Shown here in pieces: positions 3,959-63,687 of a DNA stretch of 64,000 nt (its first letter is position 1; each line of letters opens with the position of its first letter). Where the stretch lies: NCBI GenBank assembly GCA_014905635.1, contig JABVCE010000002.1, forward strand, positions 310,001 to 374,000, in the 5' to 3' direction. This DNA comes from Scenedesmus sp. PABB004 (lineage: Eukaryota). The position numbers and the translations under genes were made by a program. Below the pieces are notes generated by a model. That model ran no database searches. It worked only from the letters and a program-made list of their open reading frames with translations, and was not told the DNA's origin.

Positions 3959-5442
3959 ATGCCGCAGCCGCGGCAGCGCATCGTGTTTTGCGACTGCCTG
4001 GACTGCGTGGAGCAGCCACCCACCACCGACCTGCCGTCCTCGGCCTCGCCGGCAAACGAGGCGGCCGCCCGCCAGGAGCCGCCGCCCAAGTGCCTGCTGT
4101 TCGTGCTGTCGGGCGCGCTCGTGGCGCGCGCGGGGCCGCAGCCGCCGGGCGGCGGCGACCGCGGCGGCGGCGATGGCGGCGGCGACACGGACACGCTGCT
4201 GGACGGCCTGGCGCTGCCGCACCTGCACCGCGCGGCGGCGCAGGGCAACCTGTGCCTGCTGACGCAGCGCGCAGGCGCGGGCGCGGACTGCGTTTCGGAG
4301 CTGGCGCAGCTGCTGGGCGCGTACGACGAGCGCGCGCGGGGCGAGCCGCCCGCGAGCCTGGCCGACAGGCGCGGCGCGGCGCGGCGCGGCGCGCGGCAGC
4401 GGCGGCGCGGCACGGCACGGCGCAGCGCGCTCGGGCCCGACCCCTCCCGCGCCCCCTCTGCCCTGCAGGTTCAAGGGCATGGCAGCGAGCTGCGCCTCCA
4501 ACAGCGCCGCCGCGCGCGAGCTGGCGGCCGCCTGCGGCCTGAGCAGCAGCTCCGTGCTGGAACCGGAGGCCGCCGAGAGCGGCGCGGCGGTCGAGGCCGC
4601 AGACGGCGACGCAGCAGCCGGCGGCGGCCCGCTCGGCGCGCTGGCGGGCAGCAGCGGCGGCGGCCACCGCGCGCGCCGCGCTGCGGCGGCGGGCGCCGGC
4701 GCCGCTGACCTGCAGCTGCCGGACCCTGCTGAGGCGGCGCGGCGCGTCTTGGCGGAGCTGGGTGCGTGCAGCAGGCGGAGGCAGGGGGCACGGGCGAGGC
4801 CGCACGCACGGGCGCACCGCGGCCAGCGTGGGCTGCTGACCCGCCTGCGCCCGCGCTCCGCCGCGCCCGCCCCGGCCTGTCCGCCGCGCAGGGCTGCAGC
4901 AGGCGGCGGCCGGGCTCGACATGCTGGTGGTGCACGTGGACGCGGCACAGCCAGCGGCGCAGGAGGCGGCGCAGGCGGCGCAGGCGGCGCAGGCGGCGCA
5001 GGCGGCGCAACAGGCGGCCGCGGCGGCGCTCGCGTGGCTGGACCGCACGCTGCGGTACCTCAACAACAGCACTGCCTTCAAGGACATTGTGCTGCTGGCG
5101 GTCGTGGCCACGCCCGGCGCCGCGGGCCCGCTGCCGGCGGTGCCGCCGATGCTCGCGGACCGCGGCGGCGCGCCGCTGCGGCCGGCGGGCGCGCCGGCGG
5201 GCGCGCCGGTGCTGCGGCCGCTGCAGAGCTGGGAGCAGCTCGGCGGCGCGGCGCTCGCGGTGGACGCGGCGCGGCCGATGTTGTGCCTGCGGAGGCTGCC
5301 GGGCGTGATCCGCCGCGACGCGTGCGCGCGCTTCACGCTGCGCGAGTGCTGCGCCGCGAGCGGCGGCCTGGGCCTGGTCGCCGACCGGCTGCTGCCGGAG
5401 GTCGCCTACAAGCTCGGCCGCGCGCCCAAGTACGGTGCGTGA
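3959..5442 (+). CDS. Conserved green-lineage protein (AT5G11810-like, C-terminal KYGA)
   Basis: LPHLHRAAAQGNLCLL..ELAQLL..R|FKGM..ADRLLPEVAYKLGRAPKYGA*; GC-AG intron 4369-4468; family assigned from recalled motifs. Confidence 0.7.
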
Positions 5443-5467
5443 GCGTGGGCGACGGTGCAACCGTTCG

Positions 5468-5472
5468 TTACA
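5468..5472 (-). terminator. TGTAA poly(A) signal, probably for the SRPBCC gene
   Basis: Chlorophyte poly(A) pentamer downstream of the 6225 stop. Confidence 0.45.
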
Positions 5473-7389: not shown

Positions 7390-7762
7390 TCGCAGCGCGA
7401 TGCGAGCGCTCTGTGGTCGCGAGCCGGCTCAGCTCCCGCACGCCCGCAGCGCCAGCCGCGCCGGCGGAGAGTACAGGGGAACGTTCCACGTGGAAGCGGT
7501 GATGTGCGCGCGAGGGCGATTGGCGGATCAGCCGCGGCGCCGCGGAGAGCTTGGGCGAGCCCGCGGTCAGGGTGGGGGACGCGCTGGTGGGCGGCCGGGC
7601 CGGTGTGGACGCAGCGGCGCGCCGGGGGGCGAGCGGCGCGCCACCGCAAGCTGAAGCGCAACCTCGAGGCCCGTGACGCCCTGACGCCGCCGCGCTGGTC
7701 CGCGCCAAGCCCGGCGGCGGGGCGCCCAGTGCCCTGCCTCCCGCCTGAACAGCAGCGCCGCC

Positions 7763-8684
7763 ATGCTGCTGCGCCGCGCCGCCGCCTCGTCCGCCAGGTG
7801 CCGCCGCGCACGCGCCGCTGCCGCTGCTGCCAGCGCGCCGGCGCCGCCGCTGCCGCCCGCCACTCGCCGCCGCCGCCGCCGCCGCCGCCGCTTCAGGTGC
7901 CTGACACAAGCGCGCCCCGCCGGCGCGGCAGGCGCGGCGGCGCCGCGCCGGGGCGGCACGCGGCGCATGGCGACGACCGCAGACGAGCTGCGCGGGCAGA
8001 GCTGCTCGCTGCTCGGCGGCTGCAGCAGCGAGACGCCCAAGGTGCCGGCGGAGCAGCTGGCCGGCCTCATGGCCGCGCTGCCGGCGTGGCAGCTCGCGCC
8101 CGACCAGGCGTCGATCCGGCGCGCGTTCGTCGCCAAAAACTTCATGGCGGGTGCGCGGCACGGGCTCGGTGTGGTGGCGTGGCCGCGCGCGGCGCTGCGC
8201 CGCCGCGCACTGCCGCCACTCCCCGCCCCGCCGCCGGCAGCGGTGGGGTTTGTGAACCGCGTCGCCGAGGTGGCCGAGGCGGAGGGGCACCACCCCGACC
8301 TGCACCTCACAAACTACCGCGACGTCGAGGCGCGGCACGCAGCGCAGCGCACACGGCGGCGCAGCAGCGCGCACAGCGGCACGCAGCGCGCACAGCCGGC
8401 GTGGCGCCGGCTGAGCGAGCGCGCGCCCGACCCGCGCGCGCCGCAGGTGGTGCTGTCGACGCACGCCATCGGCGGCGTGTCCATGTTTGACCTCATCCTC
8501 GCAGCCAAGCTCGACGCGCTGCCGGTGCGCGCGCGGGCGCAGCGCGGGCGCAGCGCGCGGGGCGCACCACGGGCCGCGCGCACCGAGCGCGCCGCCGCCG
8601 CCGCCGCCACCGCCGCCGCAGGTCGAGTATTCGCCCAAGTGGGCCAAGGCCCACCCGGAGGCGGCGGTCTCCGCGCCGGCGTGA
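7763..8684 (+). CDS. Pterin-4-alpha-carbinolamine dehydratase, organelle-targeted
   Basis: AEAEGHHPDLHL catalytic motif; LSTHAIGGVSMFDLILAAKLD; four introns including GC-AG 8330-8446. Confidence 0.92.
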
Positions 8685-8837: not shown

Positions 8838-8842
8838 TTACA
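8838..8842 (-). terminator. TGTAA poly(A) signal for TPS
   Basis: First TGTAA after the TPS stop. Confidence 0.55.
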
Positions 8843-9174: not shown

Positions 9175-12100
9175 TCAGAAGGAGTCGTTGCGCGGCGGCA
9201 GGCCGACGCCGGCCATCTTTGCGAGCAGCTCCACGACCTCTGGGACGTCGTTGACGTAAAACTTGGCCTTGCTCGGCTTCTGGCCCACCACGCACGCAAA
9301 CACCTGCGCGCGCGCGGGCAGCAGGGCGCAACACCGGTCGGCAGACGGCGCGGCGCGGCGCCGGCGGGCGAGGGGGCCTGCGGCGGGCCGGCGCACGGGG
9401 CGCGTGCGCCCGCGCACACCTCTGCGGGGTGGCGCGGCGTGTCGGCGTACTGCTCAATCGCTGTGAACATGTCCTCGTCGCTGCGGTCGTCCCCCACCGC
9501 CAGCACAAAATCGACAGCGCCGCCCGCGAGGCCGCGGCCGCTGCCGCCGGCCGCGCGCGCGCGCCGCCGCCGCCGCCGCCGGCGCGTCCGCGGGCGCCGC
9601 CGCCGCGTCGGCGCCGCGCTGCTGCACGCCGCCCGGCGGCGGCGGCGGCGCGCCGCCCGCCGCAAACTGCTGCCCGCCCGCGGGGCCGGCGAGGCCCAGG
9701 CTGTGCGCCGCGACCGCCGCCGCGCCCGCGCCCGGCGGCAGCGCCGCGAGCGCCGCCGCGGCGCCGCCGCCGCTGGACGCCGCCGCCGCCGCGGCGTTGG
9801 TGGTGCTGCTGCTGCCCGGCAAGCTGGGCGGCAGCTCGCCCGTGACCAGCGGGTCCCGCTTGCAGATGAGCTCCACGAGGCTGCCCTTGGACACGCCCTG
9901 CGTGTGGTGGCGAAGCGGCGGTCGCGGCATGAGTGCGAGCACGCGCCCGCGCCAGGCGCCGCACCGCGCGTGGCACGCGCGAGCGCGGGCACGCCGCGCC
10001 ACCCCGCGCGCGCGCCTGGGGCTTTGCCTCCACGATGGTGTTGCCTGAGATGACCTCGATGGGCTTGTTGCTGAGCACATCCTCCAGGTGGTCTAGCAGC
10101 TCCTTGGCCTGCGCGCGGGCGGGCGTGGCGTGGCGCGTGTGGCAAGTTTGTGAGCTCAGGCGTGGCGGGAGACCGGCGGGCGGCGGCTGCCGAGGCAGGG
10201 CGGGGAGCAAGGGCAGGCGCGCGGGAGGGGGAGGCAGAGGGGCGGGCGGCGGCGCGCCGCGTGCCTGCCAGTTGCCAAAGTCGGGGTCCGCGTCGCCGTA
10301 GTGCCACACGAGCGCGGAGGCCTTGACCTCGATGTAGCTGCCATCGGTGCACTCACAGTACTGCGTGCGCGTGTGTGTATGTCAGCGGGGGTCTTTGAGC
10401 GAAGAGGGGCGGGCGCACGCGGCGGCGGCCCAGGCGCGGCGGCCCCGCGGCGCGGCGCCGCGCCTGCTTGAGGATGGGCGTCGCCATGGCCTGCCAGCTG
10501 TGGTCTGCGAGCGGGAAGCGGCTGTGCCACGCGCTGCGCCAGGGGGGGCGGATGAAGAAGCCATGCTCCGCGGCCAGGCCCAGCCCCAACTGGGTGGGGG
10601 GTGGGAGGAGATGACGGGCGCGGTGTGAGGGAGCGGAGGAGTGGGGGAGCGGGGGAGTGGGGGAGTGAGCGAGTGAGGGAGCGGGGGAGTGAGGGAGTGA
10701 GGGAGTGAGGGCGGGCGCGGCTGCAACAGAGACGGAGAGACCCCGAGCAGCGGCGCGGCGCGGCGTGCGGCGCGCTCACCACGCCCTCGAACCAGCCGCC
10801 CAGCTCCGACTGCGAGCGGCCGCTGATGACCCACACCTCGTTGGCCGCGTCGGCGGTCAGCTTGGCCAGCACCTGCGGAGCAAGGGGGGGACATAGGGCG
10901 GGGACGCGGGCTCAGCCGCGCGGCGGGCTTGGCGCCGCGGCGCGCGTCCCCCTGGCGGCGCCCCGGCCGCCCGGCCCGGCCGCCGCGGCGCGCGCGCCTC
11001 GAGCACGGTCGGCGGCGGCGCTGCGCTGATGTTGCGGTGGGGGATGAGCGTGCCGTCATAGTCCAGCAGCAGCAGGCGGCGCTTCGTGCTGCGCGGCGCG
11101 GGACCGCGGCGGCGGCGCGGCGCGTCAGGCGTCGGGCGTCAGGCGCCGCGCGCCGCGGGGCTGCCGCCGCGCCGCGCCGCGCGTCGCCCCCTCCTCCTCC
11201 CCCTGACAAAGCAGCCCCTGCGCGCTGCGCGCCGCGCCGCGCCGCGCCGCGCCGCGCCTGCGGTAGCCCGCGAGCAGCGTGGCGTCCTCGAGCTTCTTGA
11301 AGTTGGCGTCCAGCGCGACGAGGCGGAAGGTGTCCAGGCCGAGGCCGAGGCCGTAGCACTTCATCGCGACGTGCGCCTTGGTGCTGCGCGCGAGGTCGGC
11401 GATGTAGCTGCTCGCCCAGAAGCCCACCGTGTGCTCGCTCACGTACCTGCGCGTGCAGCGCGCGCGCGTGAGCAGGCGGGCGGACGGGGGCGGCGGGCCG
11501 CGGGCGAGGGGCGGCGCGGGCGCAGCGCGGGGGCGGGGGCGGGCACGGCGCGGGGCGCGGCGCGCGCGCGCGCGCGCGCGTGAGGGCGTCTCACTTCCAG
11601 TGCTTTTCGTGGCGCAGGCGGCGGTGCTCGGGCAGGTCTGGATGGCCGCAAACATCGCGTCCGCGACCGCGTCCACGGACCAGGGGTTGACGCGGATCGC
11701 GCCCGACAGGCTCGGCGAGCACCCCACAAACTCTGCGGCCGCGCGCGACGCGGCGGCGGCGGTGTGGGCGGCGCGGGGCGGGCGCGTCGGCTCGCGCGGC
11801 CGCGCGCAGAGCTGCGCCCGGCGGCGTGCCGCCCCCGCGCCCCTGCGCGCTCCCGCGCCCCCGCGCGCCCCCACCCCCACGCACCCGACACGACGAGCAT
11901 GCTGCCGGGCTTGTGGTCGGGCGGGTCCCAGCCGGGCGGGCCCTGGCGGCAGACGACGTACTCGTAGGGCACCAGGTTCATGCCGTCACGCGTCGCCGTC
12001 ACGACGGCCACGTCAGCGATCTGCGCGGGGGAGCAAACGCGGGCGCCCGCGCGGTCGTCGGCGGCGCACAACCCCCGCGCCGCCAGCCCCAGCCCGCCTG

Positions 12101-14901
12101 CCTCCCAGTCCCCAGCCCCGCGCTGCCGCGCGTGCGCGCCGTGTAAAAGGCGATGCGCTCGTGCAGCGGCACGTGGCGCTCGAGGTAGGCCACCGGCGTG
12201 TACCCCGGCCCGCCCCAGCGGCCGTTGATGGCCGCCACGAGCGCGAGCGCCGCCTCGTGCAGCTCCGCGAGCTCCTTGCCGCTGCTGCGTGGCGCGTTGG
12301 TGATCTGCGGGCGCGGCGCCGCGGACGCGCCGGCGCCGGCGCGCCCCCTCAGCTGCCGCCGCGGCGCCGGCGGCGGCGGCTCGCGCGCGCGGCGCGCACC
12401 CCCTCTGCCTCTCCCTCCCTCCTGATTGCCCTCCCCGCCCCCGCCCGCCCGCCCACACACACGCACCTGCACCAGCACCGCCTTGCCGCGCCACTCGGGG
12501 TGCTGCTCGAGCAGTCGCTCAAAGGCCTGGAGCTTGAGCTCGATGCCCTTGAACACGTCCAGGTCGTCCACGCCCAGCAGCACCTGGCGCCCCTCGTACT
12601 GGCTGACCAGCTCGCCGCGGCGCCACTGGAACTCCGGCCAGCTGAAGCCCTCGAGCAGGCGCTGCGGGTTGACGCCTGCGCGCGGCGCGCGGGCGCGCGG
12701 CGGCGGCGCGGCGCGCAGCCGCGCGCGTCGGCCGGCGGCGGCCCGGCGGCGCCTCTGCTCGGCGCCCGCGCCCGCCCGCCCGCCCGCCCGCCCGTTCAGC
12801 CGCCCAGCCGCCTCGTGCCGAGGGCGCGCAGCGCCCGCCCACTGCCCACGCACTCACCCACCCACGCCCGCCACACCCCCGCCCGCCCGCCTGAACCGCC
12901 TGAGCCCTGGTCCCTGAGCCCTAGCACCCACCCGTGGGCATGATCTTGATGCCAACGTTGCGGCCGTAGTACTCGATGCTGATCGCGCCGCGCAGCGTCT
13001 CGTGCTCCAGGCCCAGCATGCGGCTCGCGCACGAGAGGAAGTGCCGCGCGTAGTCAAAGGTGTGGAAGCCTGGAGGGGTGTGTGTGGCGGCGGTGTGTGG
13101 GTGGGTGGGAGGTGCAGGCGTGGCCTGCGGCGGGCCCAGAGCGCCGGCGGCGGCGCGGGCGGCGCGGGCGGCGCGGTGCGGGCGGCGCGCACCGATGAGG
13201 TCGGCGTTGAGCATCGAGCGCAGCAGCTCCTCGCGCTTGGGGAAGGTGCGGAAGATCTCGCTGCTGGGGAAGGGCGAGTGCAGGAACAGACCGCACCTGC
13301 GCACAAGCGCGGCGGTCAGCCCGGCGCCCCGCCGGCGCGGCCCCTCCACACCCCCGCCCGCCGCCTCCCTCCTCCCCGCCCTCCTCCCCGCCCGCCTCCC
13401 CGCCCGCCTCGCACCGGATCTTGTTGAATCGCTTGCGCAGCAGGCTGGGCAGCACGAGGAGGTGGTAGTCATGGATCCACACGTAGTCGGTGTCGCTGGC
13501 GCACTCCTCGACCACCTTCTCCATGAACGACTGCGCACAACGCGAGCGCGCAGGCGGTGACCGGGCGGGCGGGCGGGGCGGGGTGTGAAGACGCGCGCGC
13601 CGCGAGCCCTGCCTGCGCGCGCAACGCGCGGCGGCGGCGCGGCCCCTGCCTCGCCCCTGGCGCGGCGCGGCCGCGCCGTGCCTTGTTGGCCTTGACGTAG
13701 GCCTGCCAGAGCTCGCTGTTGAAGCGCCCCGCGCTGCTCGGCGCCATGGGCAGGACGTAGTGGAAGAGCGGCCACAGCTGCTGCTTGCAGAAGCCTGCGC
13801 GCGCGCGTGCGTGTGCGCGCGCGCCGGGCGCGGCGGCTCGGCGCGCCGCCGGCGCCGCGCCCGCGCGCCGCCCGCGACGCTGCCCGCGGGGCGCTGCGCC
13901 GCGCCGCGCTGTCGCTGCTGCGCGCGCAGGCAGGCGGGTGCCCGTGGGCGCCGCACCCTTGTAGTACTTCTCCTTGACGTCCGGCGCGATGAACACGGGC
14001 GCGCAGTTGTGCTGCGCCTTGAGCGCGACAGACACCTCCTGCGGGCCGGGACCGCGCGTGCAAAACGCGCGCATGAGCGGCCGCGCGGCGCCGCCCGTGC
14101 TGCCGCCGCGGGGCGCCCGCCGGCCGGCGCGCACACGCGCGCGCGCACGCACACACGCACACACACGCGCCGGCCGGCCGCACCTCCTGCTCCATGACGT
14201 CGACGTCGGCGTTGAGGCTGCCGACATACACGACCTCAAACTCGTCGGGGATGCCCTCCTGCAAGCCGGGGAGCAGCCCCAGGCGCGCACGCGGGCGGCG
14301 GGCGCGTGAGCGCCGACGGCGCGGGGCGCTGCTGCCGCCGCCGCCGCGCTGCTGCCGCGCTGCTGCCGCCGCCGCTGCGCGCGCCGCCGCGCCTTGGCCT
14401 GCGCGACGAGCGCGTCCGCGTCCCACTCAAACTCCCAGCTCCCGTCCGCGTCGCGCTTGGCGCGAATGGGCAAGACATTGGAGACGATGATCAGCCTGCG
14501 CCGCCGCGGCCGCGGCGGCGCGGCGCGTCGGCGGCGGCGGCAGCAGCGGCGCGCGCCGGCGTCGGCCGCGGCGGCGGGACCCCGCGCGCCGCGGCGCCGG
14601 GCGCCGTCGCGGGCGCCCGGGACGCGCGGCGCGGCGTCCCGCGCCGGGGCCAGGCACGGCGCGCCGATCGGGGCGCGGCGCGGCGGCGCCAGCCTGGCGG
14701 CGGCCGCAGCTGCCGGCACACGCGCGCGCCGGGGCGCAGCAGCGCCTCGCACCTGTTGCGCCCGCTGTTGCTGTCCAGGGAGAGCGTGGAGCCGGACTGC
14801 GGGCCCTGGCCGAAGCGGCTGGCCTGCGCCTGCCGGGCGTCGCTGAACTCGGCCGTGGCGAGCGCGGCCAGGTTGTGGTAGCTCCCCCCCATGGTCTTCA
14901 T
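9175..14901 (-). CDS. TPS: Class II trehalose-6-phosphate synthase/phosphatase
   Basis: RLIIVSNVLP, GFCKQQLWPLFHY, WIHDYHL, FLHSPFPSSEIF, RDGMNLVPYEY, LLDYDGT, GDDRSDEDMF; about 19 introns; apparent 1-bp frameshift near 11631. Confidence 0.95.
10626..10710 (+). repeat. Degenerate (GAGTGAGG)n repeat in a TPS intron
   Basis: Repeated gagtgagg/gagcgggg octamers. Confidence 0.8.
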
Positions 14902-17123: not shown

Positions 17124-20100
17124 TCACTCCGCCGCCTCCTCCTCGGCGTCGTCGCCGCCGCCGCCGTGGTCGTCGCCGCCGTGGTCGTCGCCCTCCGCGG
17201 CCGCCGCCGCGCCGCTGGCCTTGTACTCGGCCATCGCCGCGGCGTAGCGCTCCTTGTCCTTGGCCGCCTGCGGCGCGCGCGCGCACACGAGCGGGGCGCG
17301 TCGACGCGCCGACGCTGCGCAGCCGCTGAGCCGCCGCGCGCGGGGGCTGGGCGCGGCGCCGCGCGCGCCGCCCCCGCGCCGCACCTGGGCCTCGAACGGC
17401 GCCTTGTCCTCCGCTGAGAGCGCCTTCCACTGCTCGCCCAGGACCTTGCCGATCTGGCGGGGCCACGGCCCGCGGGCACGGGCGCGGGCGTGGCGTGGGC
17501 CCGCAGCGCGCGCCCAGCCCGGGCAGCGCAGCACACGCTCCAGGCGCGGCGGGGCCACTCCCATGCCCCCCCCCCCCAAAACAAACAAACAAACAAACAA
17601 ACAAACAAACAAACAAACAAACAAACAAACAAACAAACAAACAAACAAACAAACAAACAAACAAACAAACAAACAAACAACAAGGGCGCGCGCATGCGCG
17701 CCTGGCCAAAGGCGATGCCCGGGTTGTCAGCCTTGACCTTGTCGCGCGTCGCGTTTGAAAAGTACATGAACGCGCTCAGCGCCTTCTTGGGCGCGTTGGG
17801 GTCCTTCTTGCGCCGCTTCTTCTTCGCCGGCGCCTCGGCTGGGGTCGGGGTCGTTGACGCGCGGGCGCGCGGCGCGGCGGCGCGTGAGCGGGCGGCGCGG
17901 CGCGCGCGCGGCGCTCCGCTGAGAGGCGGCGGCGGCGGCGGTGGCAGCGGGCGGCGCACCCTCGCCGCCGTCGCCGTCCTCGCCAGGCGGCGGCTTCTCC
18001 TTCTTGGGCTTCTTGGCCGCCTGGGGGGCGCAGGGGGGGGGGGGGGGGCGGCACGGCCACGCGGCGCGTCGGGCGGCGGCCCGGCGGGCCGCCCCTGCGT
18101 CGAGCCTGCCCAGCGGCGCGCGCCGCCGCGCGCGGCCGCGCCACGCGCCTTGGGCTTGGGCGCCGGCGCGTCGCCGCCGCCGTCGCCGTCGGCGCCGGCC
18201 TTGCGCTTCTTGGGCTTGCTGCCCAGCACCGCGCCCACGCCGATGCCCTCCTCGTCCACCATCTCCGCGTCGCTGCTGCCGCTCGCGTCGTCGCTGCGCG
18301 GGGGCCGGCCGCGCGGCGCGGCGCGGCGCGGCGGGGGGTGGGGCGCCGCGCGGGCCGCGCGCGGGCTGCGGGCGCGGCGTGCCGAGCGCGGAGCTCACAC
18401 GCCCCACGCGCCCCGCGCGCGCGCGTGCCTGCCCTGGTCCTCGTTGAGGCTGCCGCCGCTGCTGCCGCTGTCCTCCTCGCCCGCCTCGTCAAAGTCCTCG
18501 TCGTCCTCCGAGTCGTCGTCTGCGCGCCGCGCGGCGCGCCGCCGCCGCCGCCGCTCAGCACACCGCGCTGCGCGCCGGGGGCTGGCACCCGCTCCTCCCG
18601 CCCTCCCCTCCCCGCCCGCCCGCCCCTCCAGCCGGCCCCGCGCTCCGCCGCGCGCGCGCCCCGGCCCCGCCCACGCGCACCCGCCTCGGCGCGCGCCGCG
18701 CGCAGGCCGGCGTCGAGGTCGTCGCCGAGGTCGATGCCCGCCCCGGGGCCGCGCGGGCCGGCGCGCGCCTCGGCCAGGTTGTCGACCTTGATCTTGCGCG
18801 CGTTGATGAACGCAAACAGCGGCTCCCACTCGCTGCGCGCGATGTTGCGGAACTGGTACTCCTGCGGGGTGGGCGGGGTGGGCGCAGGGTTTAGGGGTGG
18901 GTGTGGTGGGCGGGGTTTTGGGTGGTGGCGGGCGGGCGGGCGGCGGCGAGCATGCGTTGTGTGGGCGCGGGGGCGCGGGGGTGCGGGGGCGCGGGCGCCG
19001 CCGCGGGGAGGCCCGCGCGCGCGCGCGGCGTAGGGTCGCCGCACCGTGTTGTTTGAGCGCTGGCGTATGAGCAGGTCGAACGTGCGCACGCTGCTGCTGA
19101 TGACGCCGCCGCCCTGGCGCTGGAACTCGACGCTCTCGATGTCGGCCGCGTTGATGCACATCGGGGGCTTGTGCACGTAGAAGAAGGCCTTGTCCAGCGG
19201 GTACAGGAAGCCGTCGTCGGCCTTGTAGCTGACGCGGCGCCACGCACGTGGGCGTGGGCGTGGGCGTGGGCGTGGGCGTGGGCGTGGGCGTGGGCGTGGG
19301 CGTGGGCGTGGGCGTGGGCGTGGGCGGGCGTGGGAGGGCGTGGGCGCGTGGGGGGGGGGGGTGGGTGGGCGTGGGAGGGCGGCGGGTGTGCGTGAGGGTG
19401 GGTGTGAGGGTGGGTGGGTGTGCGTGTGTGAGAGGGGGGCGCGCGAGCGAGTGCGTGCGTGGCGTGGGTGGGAGCGAGGCGGGGCCTGCTGCGCGGAACC
19501 TGCAGAGCGGGGCGTCCCGACGCTGCCCGCGCCCGCGCCCGCGCGCTGCCCATGTGAGCTGCACGCCTGGCACGGCACCAAGGCAGGAAGCGCACAGGGG
19601 CAGCGCGCGGGCGCGGGCGCGGGCGCGGGCGCGCGCGGGCGGGGAGGGCGAGGCGGCGCGCCGCGCCGCGCCGCGCCGCGCGCGCGCACCTGCAGCGCAC
19701 GGCGCAGCCGTCGCCGGCGTGGTTGCGGTAGGTCTCCACCTTGGCGCGCGTGATCTTCGCGCCGCTCAGCCCGCGCAGCGTGTGCGCAAACACGGTGTGC
19801 AGCGCGCCCGACATCGTGCGCTGCAGCTTGCCGCCGCACTGCGGCGCGCGGCGCGCGGGGGTCGGGCGTCAGCGGCCGGCGGCCAGCGGCGCACCGCCGC
19901 GCATGCGCGCGCGCGTGTTCATGCCCTGCGGCGCCCTGGGGCGCTGTGCGTGCTGTGCGTGCTGTGCGTGCTGTGTGCGCTGCGTGCGCGCGCGGGTGCA
20001 CCTTTTCGTTCTTCTGCGCGAGCAGGTCGTCGCTGATGTCGAGCGTGACGGTGATGTCGTCGGCGTTGTTGAACTGGCACAGCAGGTAGCTGCGCGTGTG

Positions 20101-22040
20101 CGTGTGCGTGTGTGCGTGCGCGTGCGCGTGTGTGGTGGAGGGGGTGGTGCCGTCAGCGCGGGCCCGCCGCGCGCGCGCCGGCGCGCCGGCGCGCCGGCGC
20201 CGCCCCAGGTGTCGCCCCCCCCCCCCCCCACACACACCAACACGCCCGCGGCCGCGGCGCGCGTCGGCGGCGGCGCGGGCGCGCCTGTAGTAGGTCTGCC
20301 CCTTGCGAATGGGCGGGTCGAGGCCGATGACGACGAGCGTGTGGGGCGTGGAGGTCTTGGGCAGGATGAAGAGCCGGCCGATGCTGGCGTAGCGGATCTT
20401 AAAGTCCTGCGTCTGTGGTTGTGCGCGTGTGTGTGGGCGCGACGCAGCGCGCGGGCGCGGGCGAGGGGCGGGCGTGGGCGGGCGGGCGGGCGGGAGCGGG
20501 GAGCGGCCGCCGCTGCCGGGCTGTCCCGTGCGTGCGTGCACGTGTGCGCGCGTTGCGTGCGTGTGCTGCGCGCGTGTGTGTGCGTCGCGCGTGTGTGTGT
20601 CGCGCGCGCTGGCCGCCACCTGGCCGACGAGCTTGAGGAAGGTCGCGTGCATCTCGACCGCAAAGCGCCCGCGCGGCGCGATGACGGCGACGTCGTCGAA
20701 CAGCGCCACCGCGTCGTCGCTCGTCGCGACGCCCGCGTCGGTGTGCTGCAGCAGCGCCTCCACCAGCGCCTGCGCGGCGCACGCGCGGGCGCGGGTGCGG
20801 GCGCGTCGGGTGGGCGCGCAGCGCCGCGGCGGCGGCGCGCGCGGCGCGGCGCCGCGCGCGGGCGCGCCTTGGCGGCGGTCGCGGGCGCCTCGCCCTCGCC
20901 CGCGGCGTCGGCCGCGGCGGCGGCCCAGGCCTCGTTGCTGGGGGGCACGTGGAAGGCCATCTCGATGAGCGTGTCCTCCCTGTGTGGAGGGGAGCGGGGG
21001 TGGAGGTCGAGGTGCAGGGAGGGTGCAGGGAGGGTGCAGGGAGGGTGCAGGGAGGGTGCAGGGAGGGTGCAGGGAGGGTGCAGGGAGGGTGCAGGGAGGG
21101 TGCAGGGAGGGTGCAGGGTGCAGGGTGCAGGGAGGGCGGAGGGGGAGGGCAGGCGCAGCGGCAGGCGGCGGCGCGGCGGGTCCGCACTTGTCGTCGCCGG
21201 TGGTGTCGTCGACGTGGAACTCCAGCAGCACCTCGTCCTTGGTCTGCTGCGCCTGGCTCACGTCGGGCAGGGGCACCTCAAACATGACCTTGCCGTCAAC
21301 GCGGTACGCGAGGCTGCTCGCGTTCAGCTCCACGCCGCCCCAGTTGCGCCCCCCGATCGCGCGCTCCTGCGCGACGAGCTCCGTGCCCAGCGCGTCGCGG
21401 CAGAACGCCGCGAGCGCGTCGTGGTCCTGTGCCGGCGCGGCCGCGGGCGCGCGCGGGCGTGGGCGTGGGCCGCGTGCTGCGACGCGTGCGGCGTCGCGAG
21501 CGCCGGCGCCCGCTGGCGCGCCGCCGCCGCCGCCGCTGCAGGCGGCTCAAGGCCCTCCTGCCCCCCCCCCCCCACACGCGCGCGCACCTTCTCCTTGAAG
21601 CCCAGGAAGTTCACGGTCGGCCCCTCGCCGCGCCGCACGCCCAGCTGGCAGCCGCGCACCGCGCCCAGCCGCGTCCACACCAGACCCGTGATGTCTGCGC
21701 CGCGGGCGGCGGCGGCGGCGGCGGCGGCGGGGGCGCGTGCTGGGCGGCGGCGCGCGCGGCTGCCCCCGCAGCGAGCACGCCCGCCGCGGCGCCGCGCCTC
21801 ACCCTCCTTCTTCACGTCCACGTTCTTGCCGCCCTGCTGCCGCCGCCACGAGAATCCATGGCTGCTGACCTTGAGCAGGCCGGAGCTCTGCGGGCGCGGC
21901 GCGCCGCGGCGGCGGCGGTTGCCGCGCGCGCTGCTGCCGCTGCTGCACGCCGCGCCGCGGCGCCCCCGGCCGCACACCACGCCGCCGCGGCTGCCGAGGG
22001 AGATGTTGCCGAACTGGTGCGTCGCGGTGTCCGTCGCCAT
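17124..22040 (-). CDS. SSRP1: FACT complex subunit SSRP1 (with HMG box)
   Basis: [73 protein letters not shown] box; about 16 introns. Confidence 0.96.
17578..17683 (+). repeat. (AAAC)n microsatellite in an SSRP1 intron
   Basis: About 25 perfect AAAC units; the only long AT-rich tract nearby. Confidence 0.98.
19248..19326 (+). repeat. (GTGGGC)n microsatellite in an SSRP1 intron
   Basis: About 13 tandem hexamers. Confidence 0.95.
21011..21136 (+). repeat. 11-bp minisatellite (GGGTGCAGGGA)n in an SSRP1 intron
   Basis: About 10 tandem copies. Confidence 0.95.
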
Positions 22041-40565: not shown

Positions 40566-40596
<31 letters not shown>

Positions 40597-45741: not shown

Positions 45742-45778
<37 letters not shown>

Positions 45779-48002: not shown

Positions 48003-48047
<45 letters not shown>

Positions 48048-49356: not shown

Positions 49357-51925
49357 TCAGCAGAAGAAGCTGTGCACTCGCTCGCCGCCGCCGCCGACGC
49401 GCCGCGCGCAGGCGCGCTGCGGCGAGCCGGTGGGGCGGATGGCGTGCAGGTGGCCGTCCGGCACGCCCGCGGCGGCGATGCGCGCCGCGCTGCGGCAGCA
49501 CCACTCTGCCGGCAGCTTGTCCAGCAGCGCGGCAAACGCCGCCGCGTGGCCCGGGTCGGCAAAGCCCGCAAACACGGTGCTCACGTTGGCCACGTGCAGC
49601 CAGTCGCCCGTCGGCTGCGCCGCCAGCAGCTCGCCCAGCAGCTCGCCGCTCAGCGCCGGCGGCACCACCAGCCGCCGCCGCCCGCCGGGCAGCGCCTGCT
49701 GCTCGACGCACGCCCCGCGCCCCAGCGGGGCGGCCTGCAGCGCGTGGCGCCACGCGTAGTGCGGCTGCGCCGCCGCGGCCGCGGCGCCCCCACGCCCGCC
49801 GCCGCGCAGTCGGGCCGCCCCGGCGCGAGCTCGACGCGCGCGTCGCGCGCCGCCGCGAGGCGCGCCGGCAGGCGCGGGTCGGTCGCAAAGCCCGGCGGCC
49901 GCACGCGCAGCGCCGCGCCGCCGACGGCGGGCGCGGGCGCGGCGAGGGCGTCCAGGTCGTACACATGGTCGCCGGGGCAGTCAAACGGCAGCACCGACCG
50001 CGCGTCGCCGGGGAGGCGGCACGCCTCGTTCGCAAACCACCCGCGCACGCAGAAGCAGCGCATGCGCGGCAGCACGAGCGTGCGGTTCAACGCGAGCGCG
50101 AGCCCCAGCGCGTGCCAGAGCTGCGAGAGCTGGTCGTCCACGGCGCGCGCGTGCACCACCTCCATGTCCTCCTCGCCCCGCGCCGCGCCGTCGCGCGCCC
50201 AGCCGCTAAACCCCGGCGGCACGGGCGGGAGGTCCAGGTCGAAGCTGAGCAGCCCCCCGGGCGGCGCGTAGTACTCGCTCCCGGGGGGGTCCCAGCCGAG
50301 GTGGGCGTCGCGGAGCTTGTACACCTTGCTCGCCAGGCCGCCGTAGCCAAACACCAGGTGCACCGCGTACGGCGGCGTGCCCTGGGCGCGGTGGAGCTGC
50401 ATCACGCCGAAGCTGTAGCTGTGCAGGAAGCTGCGCCCGGGGAGGAAGGTCAAATGGCGTGGCGTGGGGGGGGGGGGCGCGGCGCGTCAGGGGGGACGCC
50501 AGCGCGCGTGCGGCACGAGCGCCTGCCGAGCAGACAGCGCGGGCGAGCCAGCCGGTCCCCCTTCCTCCCCCCTCCCCCTGCCCCGCGCTGCGCGCATACC
50601 TGCTCAACGGGAGCTGGCCCATCACCACGGTGCCGCCCAGCACGCGCCCGAGCCGGCTGTCGTCGCCCGGCACGGCCGCAAACGGGCCCAGCACGGTCGC
50701 GGCGAGGGCCTTAAACCCCTCCTGATCGTGGTTGTGCGCGTGGCGCATGCTCAACCACTGCTGCAGCAGGTGCAGCACTGCGCGGCGCGCCGGCGGTGAG
50801 TGTGCGTGTGTTTGTGTGTGCGTGTGTGTTGGTGGGTGGGTGGGGGGCAGGCTGCCCGCTGTGCGCGACTTGCAGCCCCCGCGTGCGTGCCTGGGGGCTT
50901 GGCGCGGGAAAACCACACGCCAGTATTCATCAGGCGCCCCAGTGTGAACCCCAGCTCCAGCCCTGGGTCGCCGGGCGCCTTGGTCGTGTGGTGGGCGTCC
51001 AGGCTGATCAGAAAGTCGGCCTGCGCGCGCCGCGCAGGTCAGGGAGAGGGGGGGGGGGGGGGAGAGGGCAGGGAGGCCCGCGCGCGCAGTGCCGAGGGCG
51101 CGGGCGGGTGCAGGCGGGTGCAGGCGGGCGCGCCTGGGAGGCGTTGGCGAGGAAGGGCAGCGGGTCGGCCAGCCACGCGACGTCGATGTCGCTGACGAGG
51201 GCGTTGACCCCGAGCTCCAGCAGCGCCGCCGCCGCGGGCACCTTGCGCCACGTCGCGTCCTTCCACTGCCCGCTGCCCCACGCGTAGCCGTCGCCGCCGC
51301 CGCCGTGCCAGCGCCCGGGGCGCTGCTGCGGCTCCGCGAGCCGGAAGCAGGGCAGGCCGAGCGCCGCGAGCGCCGCGTCGGTGGCGTCGTCGGCGGCGGC
51401 GACCAGGAAGTATGTGATGCCCGCGGCGCGCACGTTGCCCAGCCAGTGGTGCAGCAGCGCGGGCGCGGTCAGGCGGTCGGCGACGGCCAGCAGCACCGTG
51501 CCGTCCCGCGCCGCGGCGGCCGCCTTCGCCGCGGTCAGCGGCCCGCAGCCCGGCGGCGGCGCCGCGCCCGCGGCGCCGGCGCCGCCCGGCGCCAGCCCGC
51601 CCGCCGCGTCACCGCGCCCGGGCGGCGCGTCGATCGGCGCGCCGGGCAGCAGGTCGCCGCTGCCAGCTGCCGCCGGAGCAGCTGCAGGAGCAGCGCCGGA
51701 TGTCAGCGCCGCTGCGCTGAGCGCCGGCGGCGGCGCCCCGCCGCCGGTTTGCCCCTGGCTGCGCAGCCACGCTGGGCCCGCGCCGGAGCTCTGCCGCAGC
51801 ACCAGGGCCACCACGGCCAGCGCCGCAAGCGCCGCCGCAGCCAGCAGCGGGCGCCGCGGCGCGCCGCGCGGCCGGCGCTGGCCGCCGCCTGCCAGCGCGC
51901 CCGCTGCGGGCGGGGCGTGCGCCAT
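49357..51925 (-). CDS. GT77 nucleotide-diphospho-sugar transferase, XEG113-like arabinosyltransferase
   Basis: Type II TM anchor; LVSDIDVAWLADP (DxD), MNTGVWF, HDQEGF, PYAVHLVFGYGG..KVYKLRD, ALALNRTLVLPRMRCFC, FDCPGDHV, EWCC. Confidence 0.88.
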
Positions 51926-54277: not shown

Positions 54278-55786
54278 ATGAAGGCCGCGATCGCGCTCCT
54301 CCTGGTGGCGGCGGCCATCGTGGCCCCCGCCGCCGCGTCTGACCCCACCGAGTCGCTGCCGGGAGTGCACGACCTTAGTGAGCGCCGGGCGGGGGGCGGG
54401 CGCACGGACAGCGATGCACGCCCGGCCCGGCGCCTGCGGCCGCCGCGCGGCCGCGCGGCAGGCCGCATCATAGGCAAACCCGTGACGCGCGCGCCCAGGC
54501 GCGCTCCGGCGGCTCCTCGCGCGCTCACACGCCGCGCTGCCGCCGCCGCCGCTGCTGCCGCCCCGCAGCGCCCGACACGTTCGACAAGATCGTCAACGGC
54601 GCCAAGCACGTCCTGGTGGAATTCTACGCTCCCTGGTGCGCGTGATTGCGCGGGCGGCAGCGGTCGCCGCGATGCGCCGCGATCGCCGCCGCCTAGTCGG
54701 TTGCGCGGCCGACACCCACGGCCTGCCCGTCCGCCCGCGCCCCGCCCTGCAGGTGCGGGCACTGCAAGCACATGACGCCCGAGTACAAGACGCTCGGCGA
54801 GACGGTGGCCAACGACGCCAACCTCAAGTCGCGCGTCGTCATCGCCAAGGCGCGCCGCGCCGCGCCGCGCCCCTTGCCCCCCCCCTCTCCCCGCGCCGCG
54901 CCGCGCGGCCTCCTGCTGACGCCGCCGGCGCGGCGCGGCGCGGCGCGGCGCGGCGCGGCGCAGGTCAACGCGGACGAGCACCGCGAGCTGGGCGAGCGCT
55001 TTGGCGTGCGCGGGTTCCCGACGATCAAGTACTTTGCGCGCGGCAAGCCCGTGACCGAGGCGGCCGCGCAGGCGTACGAGGGCGCGCGCATGGCGGACAA
55101 GTTCCTGGAGTTCCTGCAGCAGAAGCTGGAGGAGGACAAGGCGCGCGCGCGCACGCGCGGAGGGGGGGGGGGTGTTTGTTGGCGTCCGGGCACGCGGGCG
55201 CGCGGGCGCTCGGCCGTGGGCGACCGCCCGCCCGCGCGCGCGCGGCGCGCAGGGCTTTGCGCGCGTGCCGGCGCTGGACAAGCTCGCCAAGAAGTTTGTC
55301 GCGGCCAAGGCGGACAAGGCCGCCGTGCTCAAGGAGGCCGAGGCGGCGGTGAAGGCGGCGGGCAAGGAGGAGGCGGCCAACGCGGAGCTCTATGCCACGT
55401 TCATGAAGCGCGCCATCGCAAAGGTGACGCGCGGCGCGGCGCGGCTGCGCGCGTGTGCGTGCGTGCGCGGCTGGGCCGCGCGCTCTGCGCCGCCCGCTGC
55501 GGCGCCCGCGCGTGCGCGCCCCGCCGACCGCGTTGCTGCCGCCTGCCCCCTGCCCCCCTTACACAAACACCCACACACACACACCACACCAACACCCACC
55601 TGCCCGCCCACCCACCAGGGCGACGAGTACCTGGAGAACGAGCTCGCGCGCCTGGAGCGCATGATCGGCACGGGCAGCGTCGCGGCGGCCAAGGTCGACG
55701 AGATGTCGCGCAAGGTCAGCGTGCTCTCCGCCTTCACCGACAAGGCCCCCGCCGACGAGGACGACGACGAGGACGACGAGGAGTGA
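54278..55786 (+). CDS. Protein disulfide isomerase-like protein (one WCGHC thioredoxin domain plus ERp29-type C-terminal domain)
   Basis: Signal peptide; VEFYAPW|CGHCK; GVRGFPTIKYF; GDEYLENELARLERM..VLSAF. Confidence 0.93.
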
Positions 55787-56140: not shown

Positions 56141-57969
<1,829 letters not shown>

Positions 57970-58504: not shown

Positions 58505-59190
58505 TCAGTGCGCGGCCGCGGCCTTCTCCTCCGCGGCAGGCGCCTCCTTCTTGCCGCCGAACGCGGTGTAGAACACGGCGCCCCAGAACGCGACGCCCCA
58601 CCACGCCAGCTGCGGGGCGGGGCGCGGCGCGAGCGCGTCGGCGGCGCGCGCGCGGCCGCAGCGCGCCGTGAGCAGCGCCGCTGCTGCGACGCCCCTGCCG
58701 GCGCCGGCTGCTGCTTAGCCGCCGCTGCCGCTGCCACCGCTGCCACCGCTGCCACCGCTGCCACCGCAGCCGCCGCTGCCGCTGCTGCCGCCGCTGCCGC
58801 CGCCGTCGCCGCTCCTGCTTGTCGGCCCCTGCTCTCGCCAGCAGGGCAGGCTGCCTGCCGCCTGTGCAGCGCGCGGCCGGGGTCCCCACGAGGCCCAGCG
58901 CGCCGCCCGCGGCCGCGCGCGCCTGGTGCTTGTGCCACGCGTCCGGGTTGGTGGGGTTGTCCCACCAGTTCACAAACATGGAGTCGTCCTCGTCCTCTGC
59001 GGGCCGGCGGGGCGTCGGTGAGGCGGCCTGATCCAGCCGCGGGCGGCGCGGCGGGCGCGGGCGGGGCACGGGGCGGCCGCGGCGGCGCACCGCCGCCGGC
59101 CATGCCACGCTTCTGCTGGAAGGCCGTCGCCTGGCGCGGCAGCCGCGCGACGGCGCGCGCCGAGGGAGCGAAGGCCCGAAGCGCGAACAT
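58505..59190 (-). CDS. Small mitochondrial single-TM protein, probable respiratory complex IV accessory subunit
   Basis: MFALRAFAPSAR..QQKRGMAGG presequence; VNWWDNPTNPDAWHKHQ|LAWWGVAFWGAVFYTAFGGKK resembles a conserved plant mitochondrial small-protein family (recalled, not searched). Confidence 0.65.
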
Positions 59191-60435: not shown

Positions 60436-60466
<31 letters not shown>

Positions 60467-61934
60467 GCTCTCGCAGGTGGGCTTGTGTGCGTGTGCGTGT
60501 GCGTGTGTGTGGGGGGGGGGGGGCAGCGGGCGCGCGCGGGCGGCAGGCAGCGGCGGCGGCGGCGGCGCGGAGAGCGGCGCGCCTGGCGCCGCCGCGCCTG
60601 CGCCGCAGAACCTGCTGGTGATGCGCTGGGCCAACCCCATCTTTGGCGCGTGGTGGAACCGGCAGTACGTGAACAACGTGCAGATCAGCTTCAAGGAGGA
60701 CTTTGGCACCCAGGGCCGCGGCGGCTACTTTGACAGCTACGGCATCATCCGCGACGTCATACAAAACCACCTCACCCAGGCGCGGCGCGGCGCGGCACGG
60801 CGGCACGGCAGGGGCGCGGCACGCCGCGCGCTGCGCCGCCGCCGACGCGCGTGTCCGCCGGCGCCGCCGCCGGTGCGCGCAGCTGCTCGCGCTGATCGCG
60901 ATGGAGTGCCCCGTGTCCAACCACCCTGATGACATCCGCGACGAGAAGGCCAAGGTGCTGCGCTGCATCCCGCCTGTCGGCGTGAGCGACGTCGTGCTGG
61001 GGCAGTACACCGCGGGTGCGCGGCGGCGACGCGCCGCGCCGCCCGCCCGCGCGCGCGCGCTGACCGGCGCTGACCGGCGCCTGCCTGCCGCCCGCCCGCC
61101 CGCGCCCGCGCGCGCGCCCGCTCCCCGCGCGCGCGGGCCGCCTGCAGGCAACGGGCAGCCGGGGTACCTCGAGGACCCGACCGTGCCGCCCGGGTCCAAG
61201 GCGCCCACGTACGCGGCGTGCCGCCTCTTCATCAACAACGAGCGCTGGGCGGGCGTGCCCTTTGTGCTGCGCGCGGGCAAGGCGCTGAGCGAGCGCTCGG
61301 TCGTCGTGCGCATCCAGCTGCACGAGAACCCGGTCCCCCTCTTCGGCCCGCACGCCTGCCACACCCACATGCGCAACGAGTTTGTCATGCGCCTCCAGCC
61401 CGGTGCGCACCCGCCGCGGCGGCGGCGGGGGCGCGCTGCCGGCCGCGCGCCGGGCCGGCGCGCGTGCGCCGGGCTGGCGGCGGGCACCCCGCGCGCTCGC
61501 CCTGACCGCCGCCCGCCCGCCGACCGCCGCCGCCGCGCGCGCGCGCCGGCCCGCGGGGTGGTCGGCCAGGCGAGGCGATCTACGCCAAGATGGTCGTCAA
61601 GAAGCCGGGGCTGGACATGGACACGGAGATGAGCGAGCTCGACCTGAGCTACACGGAGCGCTACGCCGACGTCAACATCCCCGACGCGTACGAGCGCCTC
61701 ATCCTCGACTGCATCCGCGGCGACCAGCAGCACTTTGTGCGCCGCGACGAGCTGCGCGCGGCGTGGAGCGTGTTCACGCCGCTGCTGCACGCGATCGACG
61801 CGGGCGAGGTGGAGCCCGAGCCGTACGCGTACGGCAGCCGGGGGCCGCCGAGCCAGGACGCGTTCCTCGCGGCGTCGGGGTACAAGCGCTCCGCGCGCTA
61901 CACGTGGAAGCAGGCGCGCCAGTCCACGTCGTGA
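59557..61934 (+). CDS. G6PD: Glucose-6-phosphate 1-dehydrogenase (probably cytosolic type)
   Basis: [53 protein letters not shown]; no obvious transit peptide. Confidence 0.97.
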
Positions 61935-62461
61935 GCGCGGCGCGGGCGACGCGCCGCCTGGGCGTCGAGTTGCTTTGTGTGTTGTGTTGCACTCGCAGTC
62001 GCGCGCGCATTGACGAGAGCGGCGGCAGCACTGACTGGCGGCGGCGGCAGCAGCGGCGGCAGATGTGGCGGCGCACCCCAACCGCACGGTGCAACAGAGG
62101 CGGCGTGCCGGCGGGCGGCAGCGGCGGCACAGGGCGCAGCGGCGGGCGGATGACGGCGGGCCGTCTCAGCGCGCCATCCGGTGCAGAGCTGCCTCCCGCG
62201 CCGCCCCAGTCACTGCCCGCCGCTTGCAGCCGCGCCAGCGCACGCACAGAGCCGCTCTCGGCGAGCCAGGCCCGGCAGCCCGGAGCGCACGCGCGCCTGG
62301 CCCGCCGCGGCCTGCCAGCAGGCCTCAGCGCTCGGGAGTGGGGCAACAGCAGCTCCGGCTTGCGTGGGAGCCGCGGCAGGGCCCACGCCGCGGGGGGTGG
62401 GCGGCCGGCATCGCCGCAGCAACAGCGCCCGCGCAGCCCGCGCGCTGCCCTCGCGGCAGCC

Positions 62462-63687
62462 ATGGGGCGCGTGGAGGCGGTGTACGATGAGTACCTGGCG
62501 CGTCGCAAGGGCATCATCCGCGCGCTGACGAACGAGGTGCGCGGCGGCGGCGGCCGCGCCGCTGCCGGCCGCGGCGGCGCCCGCCGCGGCGCGTGCGGCG
62601 CGCCGCCGACGACGCCCTCCCGCCTCCGCGTGCAGGTGGACATGTTCTTCTCGCAGTGCGACCCGGAGCGCGAGAACCTCTGCCTGTACGGCAACGTCGA
62701 CGGCACGTGGTCGGTGAGCCGCGCGGCCGGCTGCTCGCCGCGCGGCGGCGGGGCCCCCGCGCGGCGCGCTCACACCGGGCGGCGCGCGCAGGTGGACCTG
62801 CCCGCAGAGGAGGTGCCGCCGGAGATCCCCGAGCCGGCGCTGGGCATCAACTTTGCGCGCGACGGCATGCAGGCGCGCAGCCGCGCCGCGACGGCGCGTG
62901 GCAGCGCGCCGCGCGCCGCGCGCGCCGACACCCGCGCGCTCCCTCGCGCCCCGCCGCGCAGCGCAAGGACTGGCTCGCGCTGGTGGCGGTGCACTCCGAC
63001 TCGTGGCTGCTCGCGCTCGCGTTTTACAAGGGCGCGCGGCTGAACAAGGAGCAGCGCGAGGAGCTGTTTGGCGCCATCAACAGCTTACCCACCTGCTACG
63101 AGGTCGTGTCGGGCAAGGCCAAGGGCGCGGCGCAGCCGCGCAAGGTCGGCGCGGCGGCGCGGTCCAAGGCGCGCGCGGTGGGTGGCGGCGCGGCGGGGGG
63201 GGGGGGGCGCGGGCGCCGCGCAGCGCACGTGCGCGCCGTCGCGGGGCGGGGCGCGCGGCGGGGCGCGCGGCGGGGCGCGCGGCGGGGCGCGCGGCGGGGT
63301 GCGCGGCAGCCGCGCCCGCTGAGGGGGCTCGCCCCGGCCGGGCGGCGCGCCGCAGGACGACTACGACGACGACGACGAGGAGGACGACGGCTGGCAGGAC
63401 GGCGAGGGCGACCCCTGCCCCGGCTGCCGCGGCTTCTACCGCACCGACGAGTTTTGGATCGCGTGCGACAAGTGCGACAGCTGGTGGTGCGGCCGCTGCT
63501 CCAAGGTGCGGCGCGGCGGGCGCGGCGCGGCCGCGCGCTGGCCGCCGCCGCCGGCGGGGCCGGGCGGGCGGGCGCGCGAGCGCTCGCCCACACACCTTGC
63601 GCGCCCGGCGCGCAGATGACGGCGGCCAAGGCTGAGAAGACCAAGAACTGGTGCTGCGTCAAGTGCTCCGGCAATCGCTTCGACTGA
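62462..63687 (+). CDS. Alfin-like PHD finger protein
   Basis: [52 protein letters not shown] finger [20 protein letters not shown]. Confidence 0.95.

Follow-up and report, generated by a model that had tools for sequence, protein, structure and literature searches.

GC-AG introns and their host genes

The stretch of DNA analyzed here (hereafter the window: 64,000 nucleotides, positions 310,001 to 374,000 of contig JABVCE010000002.1 of Scenedesmus sp. PABB004, with coordinates counted from its first letter) consists of tightly packed, intron-rich nuclear genes, in which many introns appear to begin with GC instead of GT. G+C content is 78% over the whole 64 kb and 76–81% in each 4-kb bin, and the codon positions 1, 2, and 3 have GC fractions of about 0.66–0.79, 0.46–0.53, and 0.95–0.97, respectively. 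A Pfam scan of 122 candidate reading frames, picked by codon-position GC out of 508 stop-free frames spanning 70 or more codons, identified genes for trehalose-6-phosphate synthase/phosphatase (TPS), SSRP1, cyclophilin, SYF2, subtilase, histidyl-tRNA synthetase, NOC2, a class IV aminotransferase, an EXS protein, an ERp29-like thioredoxin protein, ribosomal protein uL5, G6PD, and an Alfin-like PHD protein, among others.

A sequence-only reading of the window had listed 27 GC donors and summarized them mostly as AG/GCGCG[CG] or AG/GCACG (a slash marks the exon-intron boundary). The letters agree: GC occupies intron positions +1/+2 at all 27 coordinates, an exon AG directly precedes the donor at 26 of them (the exception, 12139, has CG), and [GA]CG occupies +3 to +5 at 26 (the exception, 46271, reads GCGCAC). 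The summary thus holds as AG/GC[GA]CG, and all 27 donors fit GC[GA]C[GA].

Homology and coding signal at the GC donors

We wrote a spliced protein-to-genome dynamic programming aligner (BLOSUM62, affine gaps, all three intron phases) that admits only an allowed set of donor dinucleotides combined with an AG acceptor and does not score the flanking bases. The set GT+GC was compared with GT only and with the decoy sets GT+GG, GT+CG, and GT+CC. Four genes, picked because they hold listed sites, were aligned with their homologues: TPS with 10 of 19, SSRP1 with 10 of 28, NOC2 with all 3, and G6PD with 10 full-length proteins of 150 listed. Introns entered the verified set when at least 3/10 (TPS), at least 4/10 (SSRP1), 2/3 (NOC2), or at least 5/10 (G6PD) homologues agreed on them. 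This gave 51 introns, 35 with GT and 16 with GC donors; the TPS segment at 11664 (GAG acceptor, 7/10) and an alternative GC donor at 20873 (3/10) were left out.

Spliced alignment returned every one of the 16 GC donors listed for these genes (8 in TPS, 5 in SSRP1, 2 in NOC2, and 1 in G6PD). They are given below together with the loss, that is, the alignment score forfeited (in BLOSUM62 units) when all GC donors within 150 nt are banned.

9178..14901, minus strand: TPS gene (Pfam Glyco_transf_20 and Trehalose_PPase); 19 homology-supported introns, 8 of them GC-AG; 10 homologues
14259..14392, minus strand: TPS GC-AG intron, aag/GCGCGG; 8/10 homologues; loss 36/4/0 (weak margin)
13531..13681, minus strand: TPS GC-AG intron, aag/GCACGG; 10/10 homologues; local loss 32–40
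12021..12139, minus strand: TPS GC-AG intron, acg/GCGCGC; 10/10 homologues; loss 77–81; the sole GC donor without exon AG
11089..11257, minus strand: TPS GC-AG intron, cag/GCGCGG; 7/10 homologues; loss 90–114
10873..10997, minus strand: TPS GC-AG intron, gag/GCGCGC; 10/10 homologues; loss 17–24
10361..10463, minus strand: TPS GC-AG intron, cag/GCGCGG; 9/10 homologues; loss 20–26
10109..10264, minus strand: TPS GC-AG intron, cag/GCACGC; 10/10 homologues; loss 43
9898..10015, minus strand: TPS GC-AG intron, cag/GCGCGC; 8/10 homologues; loss 24
17268..22040, minus strand: SSRP1 (FACT subunit) gene (Pfam POB3_N, SSrecog, PH1_SSRP1, Rtt106, and HMG_box); 15 homology-supported introns, 5 of them GC-AG; 10 homologues
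20770..20867, minus strand: SSRP1 GC-AG intron; 6/10 homologues, with GC at 20873 used instead in 3/10; loss 73–87
20090..20284, minus strand: SSRP1 GC-AG intron; 10/10 homologues; loss 32–34
18294..18428, minus strand: SSRP1 GC-AG intron, cag/GCACGC, in a weakly conserved region; 5/10 homologues; loss 14/16/1
18021..18148, minus strand: SSRP1 GC-AG intron in a weakly conserved region; 4/10 homologues; loss 23–48
17454..17701, minus strand: SSRP1 GC-AG intron within the HMG box; 9/10 homologues; loss 20
40336..40461, plus strand: NOC2 GC-AG intron; 2/3 homologues, the third not covering the region; loss 33/11
40558..40706, plus strand: NOC2 GC-AG intron, cag/GCACGA; 2/3 homologues; loss 49–52
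60780..60882, plus strand: G6PD GC-AG intron; 9/10 homologues; loss 51–54

Allowing GC donors gave the top score, above GT only and all decoys, in 10/10 TPS homologues (for homologue P0001, 3768 with GT+GC versus 3366 with GT only, 3641 with GG, 3686 with CG, and 3584 with CC) and likewise in 10/10 SSRP1 homologues. It was also top in 2/3 NOC2 homologues, the third, which covers only the 3' part, showing no difference, and in 8/10 G6PD homologues, with one tie and a lower score in one partial alignment. At 13 of the 16 sites, every tested homologue lost at least 17 and up to 114 units when GC was banned; the loss was weaker at 14392, 18428, and 40336.

As a method control, we used TPS loci of other organisms from metagenome contigs with 67–69% GC (L072–L075), whose donors are of the GTGAGT/GTAAGC type. 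Here the GC option scored about the same as the GG decoy and brought no gain (7749 versus 7735; 10866 versus 10863), so that high GC alone does not create the aligner signal. These loci came from one metagenome scan with a Tetradesmus TPS query, in which none of the 80 loci provided orthologous TPS introns of close relatives; the GC-rich loci of that scan (L072–L075 and L001) have GTGAGT/GTAAGC-type donors or are nearly intronless and serve as a method control only.

One further TPS segment (11627-11664, minus strand, 38 nt, GAG acceptor) was skipped as an 'intron' in 7/10 homologue alignments. A short in-frame insertion specific to the lineage is the more likely reading.

Intrinsic signals were assessed with an ab initio parser trained on the four genes, which combines a coding model with three-base periodicity, a model of introns, and weight matrices for donors and acceptors that are blind to +2. 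In leave-one-gene-out runs, it recovered 48 of the 51 verified donors, including all 16 with GC. Window-wide, counting genes that score at least 60 and have no stronger gene overlapping them on the opposite strand, the parse with GT+GC returned 96 GT and 66 GC donors, the latter including 26 of the 27 listed. The parser over-calls frequent dinucleotides: decoy parses returned 40 GG donors with GT+GG and 29 GA donors with GT+GA. The decoy-corrected excess is about 26 GC donors, close to the size of the original list. A combination of motif and coding-to-noncoding transition was found at 30 of 101 occurrences of AG/GC[GA]CG and 28 of 49 of AG/GT[GA]CG, versus 2 of 25 of AG/GG[GA]CG and 2 of 21 of AG/GA[GA]CG. 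Taken together, homology and coding signal confirm, at the level of sequence, the GC donors as real exon ends.

The GC share is 16/51 (31%) in the four tested genes, an overstated figure as these genes were picked for listed sites, and reaches about two in five junctions in TPS. Window-wide it is about 19–22%, the decoy-corrected excess of about 26 GC donors standing against 96–111 GT donors; this agrees with the one intron in five claimed before and, like the share in the four genes, lies far above 1–2%. Beside the earlier estimate of about 140 introns, the ab initio counts amount to 96–139 GT donors, depending on mode.

The remaining listed sites, and one additional candidate, are as follows.

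54850..54963, plus strand: GC-AG intron of the thioredoxin/ERp29-like gene (VIAK/VNAD); PDI alignments and ab initio parse
55141..55252, plus strand: candidate GC-AG intron in the thioredoxin/ERp29-C linker of the same gene; ab initio parse; flanking exons match Thioredoxin 56-102 and ERp29 2-55; weak
8330..8446, plus strand: GC-AG intron of the pterin-4a-carbinolamine dehydratase gene; ab initio parse; Pterin_4a 37-65 and 68-91 covered by the flanking exons, contiguous at about 66/67
62873..62961, plus strand: GC-AG intron of the Alfin-like PHD gene; ab initio parse; flanking exons match Alfin 51-76 and 77-126, exactly contiguous
4369..4468, plus strand: probable GC-AG intron, gene family unassigned; coding frame changes from 2 to 0 over a 100-nt gap, CAG acceptor; absent from the ab initio parse
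43179..43280, minus strand: predicted GC-AG intron in a gene without Pfam match; ab initio parse and coding-transition test
45947..46045, minus strand: predicted GC-AG intron of the same gene as 43280; ab initio parse and coding-transition test
46172..46271, minus strand: predicted GC-AG intron of the same gene as 43280, cag/GCGCAC (+5A); ab initio parse
51021..51133, minus strand: predicted GC-AG intron of a Nucleotid_trans gene; ab initio parse and transition test; Nucleotid_trans 10-86 covered by the upstream exon
50778..50890, minus strand: doubtful GC-AG intron, cag/GCACGC; ab initio parse; an upstream coding score of -0.4 fails the transition test
58862..58922, minus strand: predicted GC-AG intron, short at 61 nt; ab initio parse and transition test
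63169..63355, plus strand: additional candidate GC-AG intron of the Alfin gene, aag/GCGCGC, outside the original list; ab initio parse and transition test

The junction VIAK/VNAD is borne out on both sides by PDI structures, which align to the thioredoxin reading frame through VVIAK (residue 51) and resume at VNAD (88-90), 38 residues on, as the intron 54850..54963 requires. A PDB search with the pterin-4a-carbinolamine dehydratase reading frame gave 0 matches, and Pfam gave no match for the two exons downstream of 51133 and 50890. Further candidate GC donors outside the list, with AG/GCGCG and a coding-to-noncoding transition, lie at 56644 and 16897, both on the minus strand.

Sequence context of GC and GT donors

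Since the verified sites were chosen on homology and dinucleotide only, the flanking bases represent an independent read-out. In this set, an exon AG precedes 15/16 GC donors, versus 17/35 GT donors (p=0.0019); position by position, -2A is found in 15/16 versus 20/35 and -1G in 16/16 versus 32/35. On the intron side, +4C occurs in 16/16 GC versus 24/35 GT donors (p=0.011) and +5G in 16/16 versus 33/35, while +3 is G in 34/35 GT donors and G (12) or A (4) in the GC donors, so that +3A is seen in 4/16 versus 0/35 (p=0.007). The full local consensus, exon AG plus +4C and +5G, is present in 15/16 GC and 11/35 GT donors (p=4e-5). Expressed differently, there are 15 GC and 11 GT donors within this strong context, and 1 GC and 24 GT donors elsewhere. 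The same bias is evident window-wide when ab initio GT donors are compared with 26 GC donors: exon AG in 25/26 GC versus 45/96 GT donors (p=2.5e-6), +4C in 26/26 versus 64/96, and +3A in 5/26 versus 2/96. The base +4A, which is present in 4/35 GT donors (19/96 ab initio), was found in none of the GC donors.

It had been claimed that the GC donors lack the normal U1-compensating bases. This stands for the textbook bases +4A and +6T, which are missing, and fails for the donor as a whole, given the enrichment of exon AG, of +3A, and of the combined local consensus. The GC donors are compensated, toward the lineage's own local consensus, and depend strongly on context. The mean number of Watson-Crick pairs with the canonical U1 arm is 4.9 for GC and 5.2 for GT donors. 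Among the alternatives put forward by the sequence-only reading, which were a variant U1 5' arm, an altered U6 ACAGA box, or exon-AG dependence, the last is the part favoured by the data.

The GTGC-type GT donors described earlier are likewise present, as both classes share this core and GT donors have +3G in 34/35, +4C in 24/35, and +5G in 33/35 cases. We considered +4C in all donors as a sign of selection and rejected this. Intron interiors consist of 47% C, 39% G, 7% A, and 8% T, and in their G?G context C is nine times as frequent as T (C/(C+T) = 0.90) and accounts for 66% of the bases, the background for +4, from which the +4C frequency of GT donors with +3G and +5G (34/44) is not different (p=0.15). 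The GTGCG core thus mostly reflects base composition, and on its own it requires no altered small nuclear RNA (snRNA).

In other respects, the verified GC and GT introns are alike. Median lengths are 131 and 134 nt and G+C contents 85% and 87%, respectively, both above that of the exons. All 16 GC introns end in CAG, as do 50 of all 51, with a single TAG at 41001. A search for the branch point motif CTRAY 8–60 nt from the 3' end found it in just 4 of the 51 introns and gave no usable consensus. The longest verified intron (SSRP1, 19229-19689, minus strand, 461 nt) has a short CGCCCA tandem array at its end.

Origin of the GC donors

We consider it likely that these are ordinary major-spliceosome (U2-type) introns of an extreme-GC chlorophycean nuclear genome, produced by GC-biased substitution and read by unchanged snRNAs. 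Strong GC-biased substitution pressure would push intron position +2 from T to C, and +2C would survive only where the other recognized positions are optimal, namely -2A, -1G, +1G, +3G or A, +4C, and +5G. Donor recognition would be additive, in the classical manner, with the lost +2U:A pair with U1 paid for by the exon-side AG pairs and a better +3 pair, and an altered snRNA would be unnecessary. If +2 were free, about 90% C would be expected there; observed are about 50% in strong and 4% in weak contexts, as selection on total donor strength under GC-biased substitution predicts. This amounts to a quantitative rule, that +2C is tolerated almost only where exon AG and [GA]CG at +3 to +5 occur together, as expected if U1 recognition follows an additive-affinity model and mutation is GC-biased. 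We infer the mutational drive from base composition, and the unchanged state of U1 and U6 is likewise part of this inference; a link between the GC donors and the extreme GC content is plausible.

Abundant GC-AG introns are an already documented habit of very GC-rich algae. The GC-AG share averages 1.2–1.3% of introns in plants and in 61 eukaryotes (PMC6310983; PMC3033335), and GC-AG introns occur at exceptionally high levels in high-GC species, accounting for 39.6% in Aureococcus anophagefferens, 22.2% in Micromonas pusilla, and 7.7% in Chlorella sp. (Iwata and Gotoh 2011, PMC3033335). The putative U1 RNAs of Aureococcus and M. pusilla match the consensus in their 5'-terminal 11 nucleotides, and base modification or U1 proteins, instead of a changed U1, were proposed for those algae (PMC3033335). 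In Emiliania huxleyi, 56–60% of donors are GC (56% of 241 curated junctions, nine of them confirmed by reverse transcription PCR (RT-PCR)), a shift from GT to GC that was ascribed to GC content (PMC4028052), and GC-rich pelagophytes have 14–17% GC-AG introns versus 0.32% in a low-GC relative (bioRxiv 10.1101/2024.10.30.620910).

The window resembles the high-GC algae of PMC3033335 in being very GC-rich, in having tens of percent of GC-AG introns, and in keeping the AG acceptor; M. pusilla and Chlorella are green algae as well. It differs in its lineage, which is chlorophycean, and in its G+C content of 78% versus 64–70% in those algae; in each bin, the window lies above the level of about 64% seen in GC-AG-rich algal genomes. 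The strict AG/GC[GA]CG context rule was measured here, and the available portion of that study contains no statement of such a rule. As in E. huxleyi, the acceptor is unchanged and the shift from GT to GC is attributed to GC content; however, E. huxleyi is a haptophyte with a majority of GC donors and with junctions backed by expressed sequence tags and RT-PCR, whereas those described here are known from DNA sequence alone. Classical animal and plant GC-AG introns, which make up about 1% and have the consensus AG/GCAAGT (PMC2490688; PMC6310983; PMC3033335), are similarly U2-type, with the rest of the donor nearer to the consensus than in GT donors, a near-invariant exon AG, and enriched +3A. 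In contrast to these, the GC-AG introns of the window are about 20 times more frequent, and compensation is toward the local +4C/+5G, not +4A/+6T. Within the literature searched, we found no earlier report of abundant GC-AG introns in Sphaeropleales, in Chlamydomonas, or in a genome this GC-rich. By precedent, the proposal of a changed U1 or U6 appears disfavoured, and on present evidence a new splicing mechanism is not indicated.

Several points weigh against the preferred reading. GC donors always have +4C and never the canonical compensating base +4A, the reverse of what pairing with a canonical U1 would predict; something besides U1 pairing may read +4, and the invariant +4C, as the one unexplained feature, leaves small room for a lineage-specific twist. 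Furthermore, 8 of the 27 sites (55141, with a weak Pfam match, 43280, 46045, 46271, 51133, 58922, 4369, and 50890) are without homology or profile support, the false positives of the ab initio parse are high for frequent dinucleotides (40 GG decoys), and the share of 16/51 reflects the choice of the tested genes and is therefore too high.

The +4 position also bears on the strongest rival, altered 5' splice-site recognition, in which U1 would have a modified 5' arm, U6 a modified ACAGA box, or a protein factor would recognize +3G/+4C/+5G, so that +2 matters less. The local consensus G[TC]GCG is unlike GTAAGT, the canonical compensating +4A is absent from GC donors, and +4C is invariant in these (16/16; 26/26), in excess of the 66% C background of the G?G context, whereas GT donors tolerate +4A, G, or T. 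However, the +4C frequency of GT donors is at the intron background, GC donors are enriched for -2A, -1G, and +3A, which pair with the canonical U1 arm, and +3A would not be favoured by a U1 carrying C at the facing position. In addition, the canonical U1 5' end is kept in Aureococcus and M. pusilla despite their high GC-AG shares (PMC3033335). We thus regard altered recognition as unlikely. A specific form of it, to which we assign a similarly small chance, is that the intron CpG at +4C/+5G serves as a positive donor determinant, recognized by U6, an altered U1 arm, or a protein associated with U1, and that +2U is partly dispensable. If so, the invariance of +4C and the missing +4A would reflect a recognition code that moved away from GURAGU in step with the extreme GC content.

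That the junctions are misplaced, with nearby GT dinucleotides as true donors or with no introns at all, is very improbable. The GC dinucleotide is five times commoner than GT (1341 versus 246 occurrences in the TPS region), the decoy dinucleotides also score above GT only, and a few consensus-less GC 'donors' occur in poorly conserved stretches (e.g., 12886, 11587, and 9595, in one homologue). Nevertheless, GT+GC outscores decoys of equal or similar frequency in all tested TPS and SSRP1 homologues, most homologues pick identical sites, and GT-only alternatives delete or insert conserved residues at a cost of 17–114 units. Moreover, sites picked on dinucleotide and homology alone share AG/GC[GA]CG, Pfam profile positions are contiguous over two further junctions, and the control loci show no GC advantage.

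Even less credible is a recent spread of transposon-derived introns ('introners') carrying a GC donor. Introners have reportedly been linked to the two algae for which the largest GC-AG shares have been published. In the window, the first 12 bases are identical in several GC introns and intron pairs score somewhat above dinucleotide shuffles (top 82 versus 62 bits), but an all-against-all comparison of the 51 verified introns revealed no sequence families, which led us to reject an introner family: there is no full-length family, the best pair (82% over 93 nt) lies in low-complexity sequence of 86% GC, the highest-scoring pairs each consist of two GT introns, and GC and GT introns are equal in length and composition. 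Minor-spliceosome (U12-type) GC-AG introns, for which nothing speaks beyond the non-GT donor, are refuted at the sequence level by the donor letters, since none of the 27 GC[GA]C[GA] donors has the U12-type core, and a Rfam scan of the 64-kb window yielded 0 matches, i.e., no snRNA, including U11 and U12.

As a chlorophycean case at extreme GC, the window extends the established association of GC-AG usage with GC content by one data point. Gene finders restricted to GT would mis-annotate about one junction in five in this genome, and about two in five in TPS, with conserved residues lost or inserted, a fault that also affected the earliest gene models of E. huxleyi (PMC4028052).

The top protein matches of TPS and SSRP1 are from Tetradesmus, Scenedesmus, Raphidocelis, and Monoraphidium, which places the DNA close to Sphaeropleales within the chlorophycean green algae; no near-identical protein to either query was present in the searched collections. 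Their best matches, Tetradesmus obliquus OEZ86_002503 and OEZ86_002510, lie on one shared 8.1-Mb contig, which suggests, on the basis of sequence matches, that the local gene order of TPS and SSRP1 is conserved with T. obliquus. The window also encodes the splicing factor SYF2 (30483-31622, plus strand; Pfam PF08231, E 1.3e-22).

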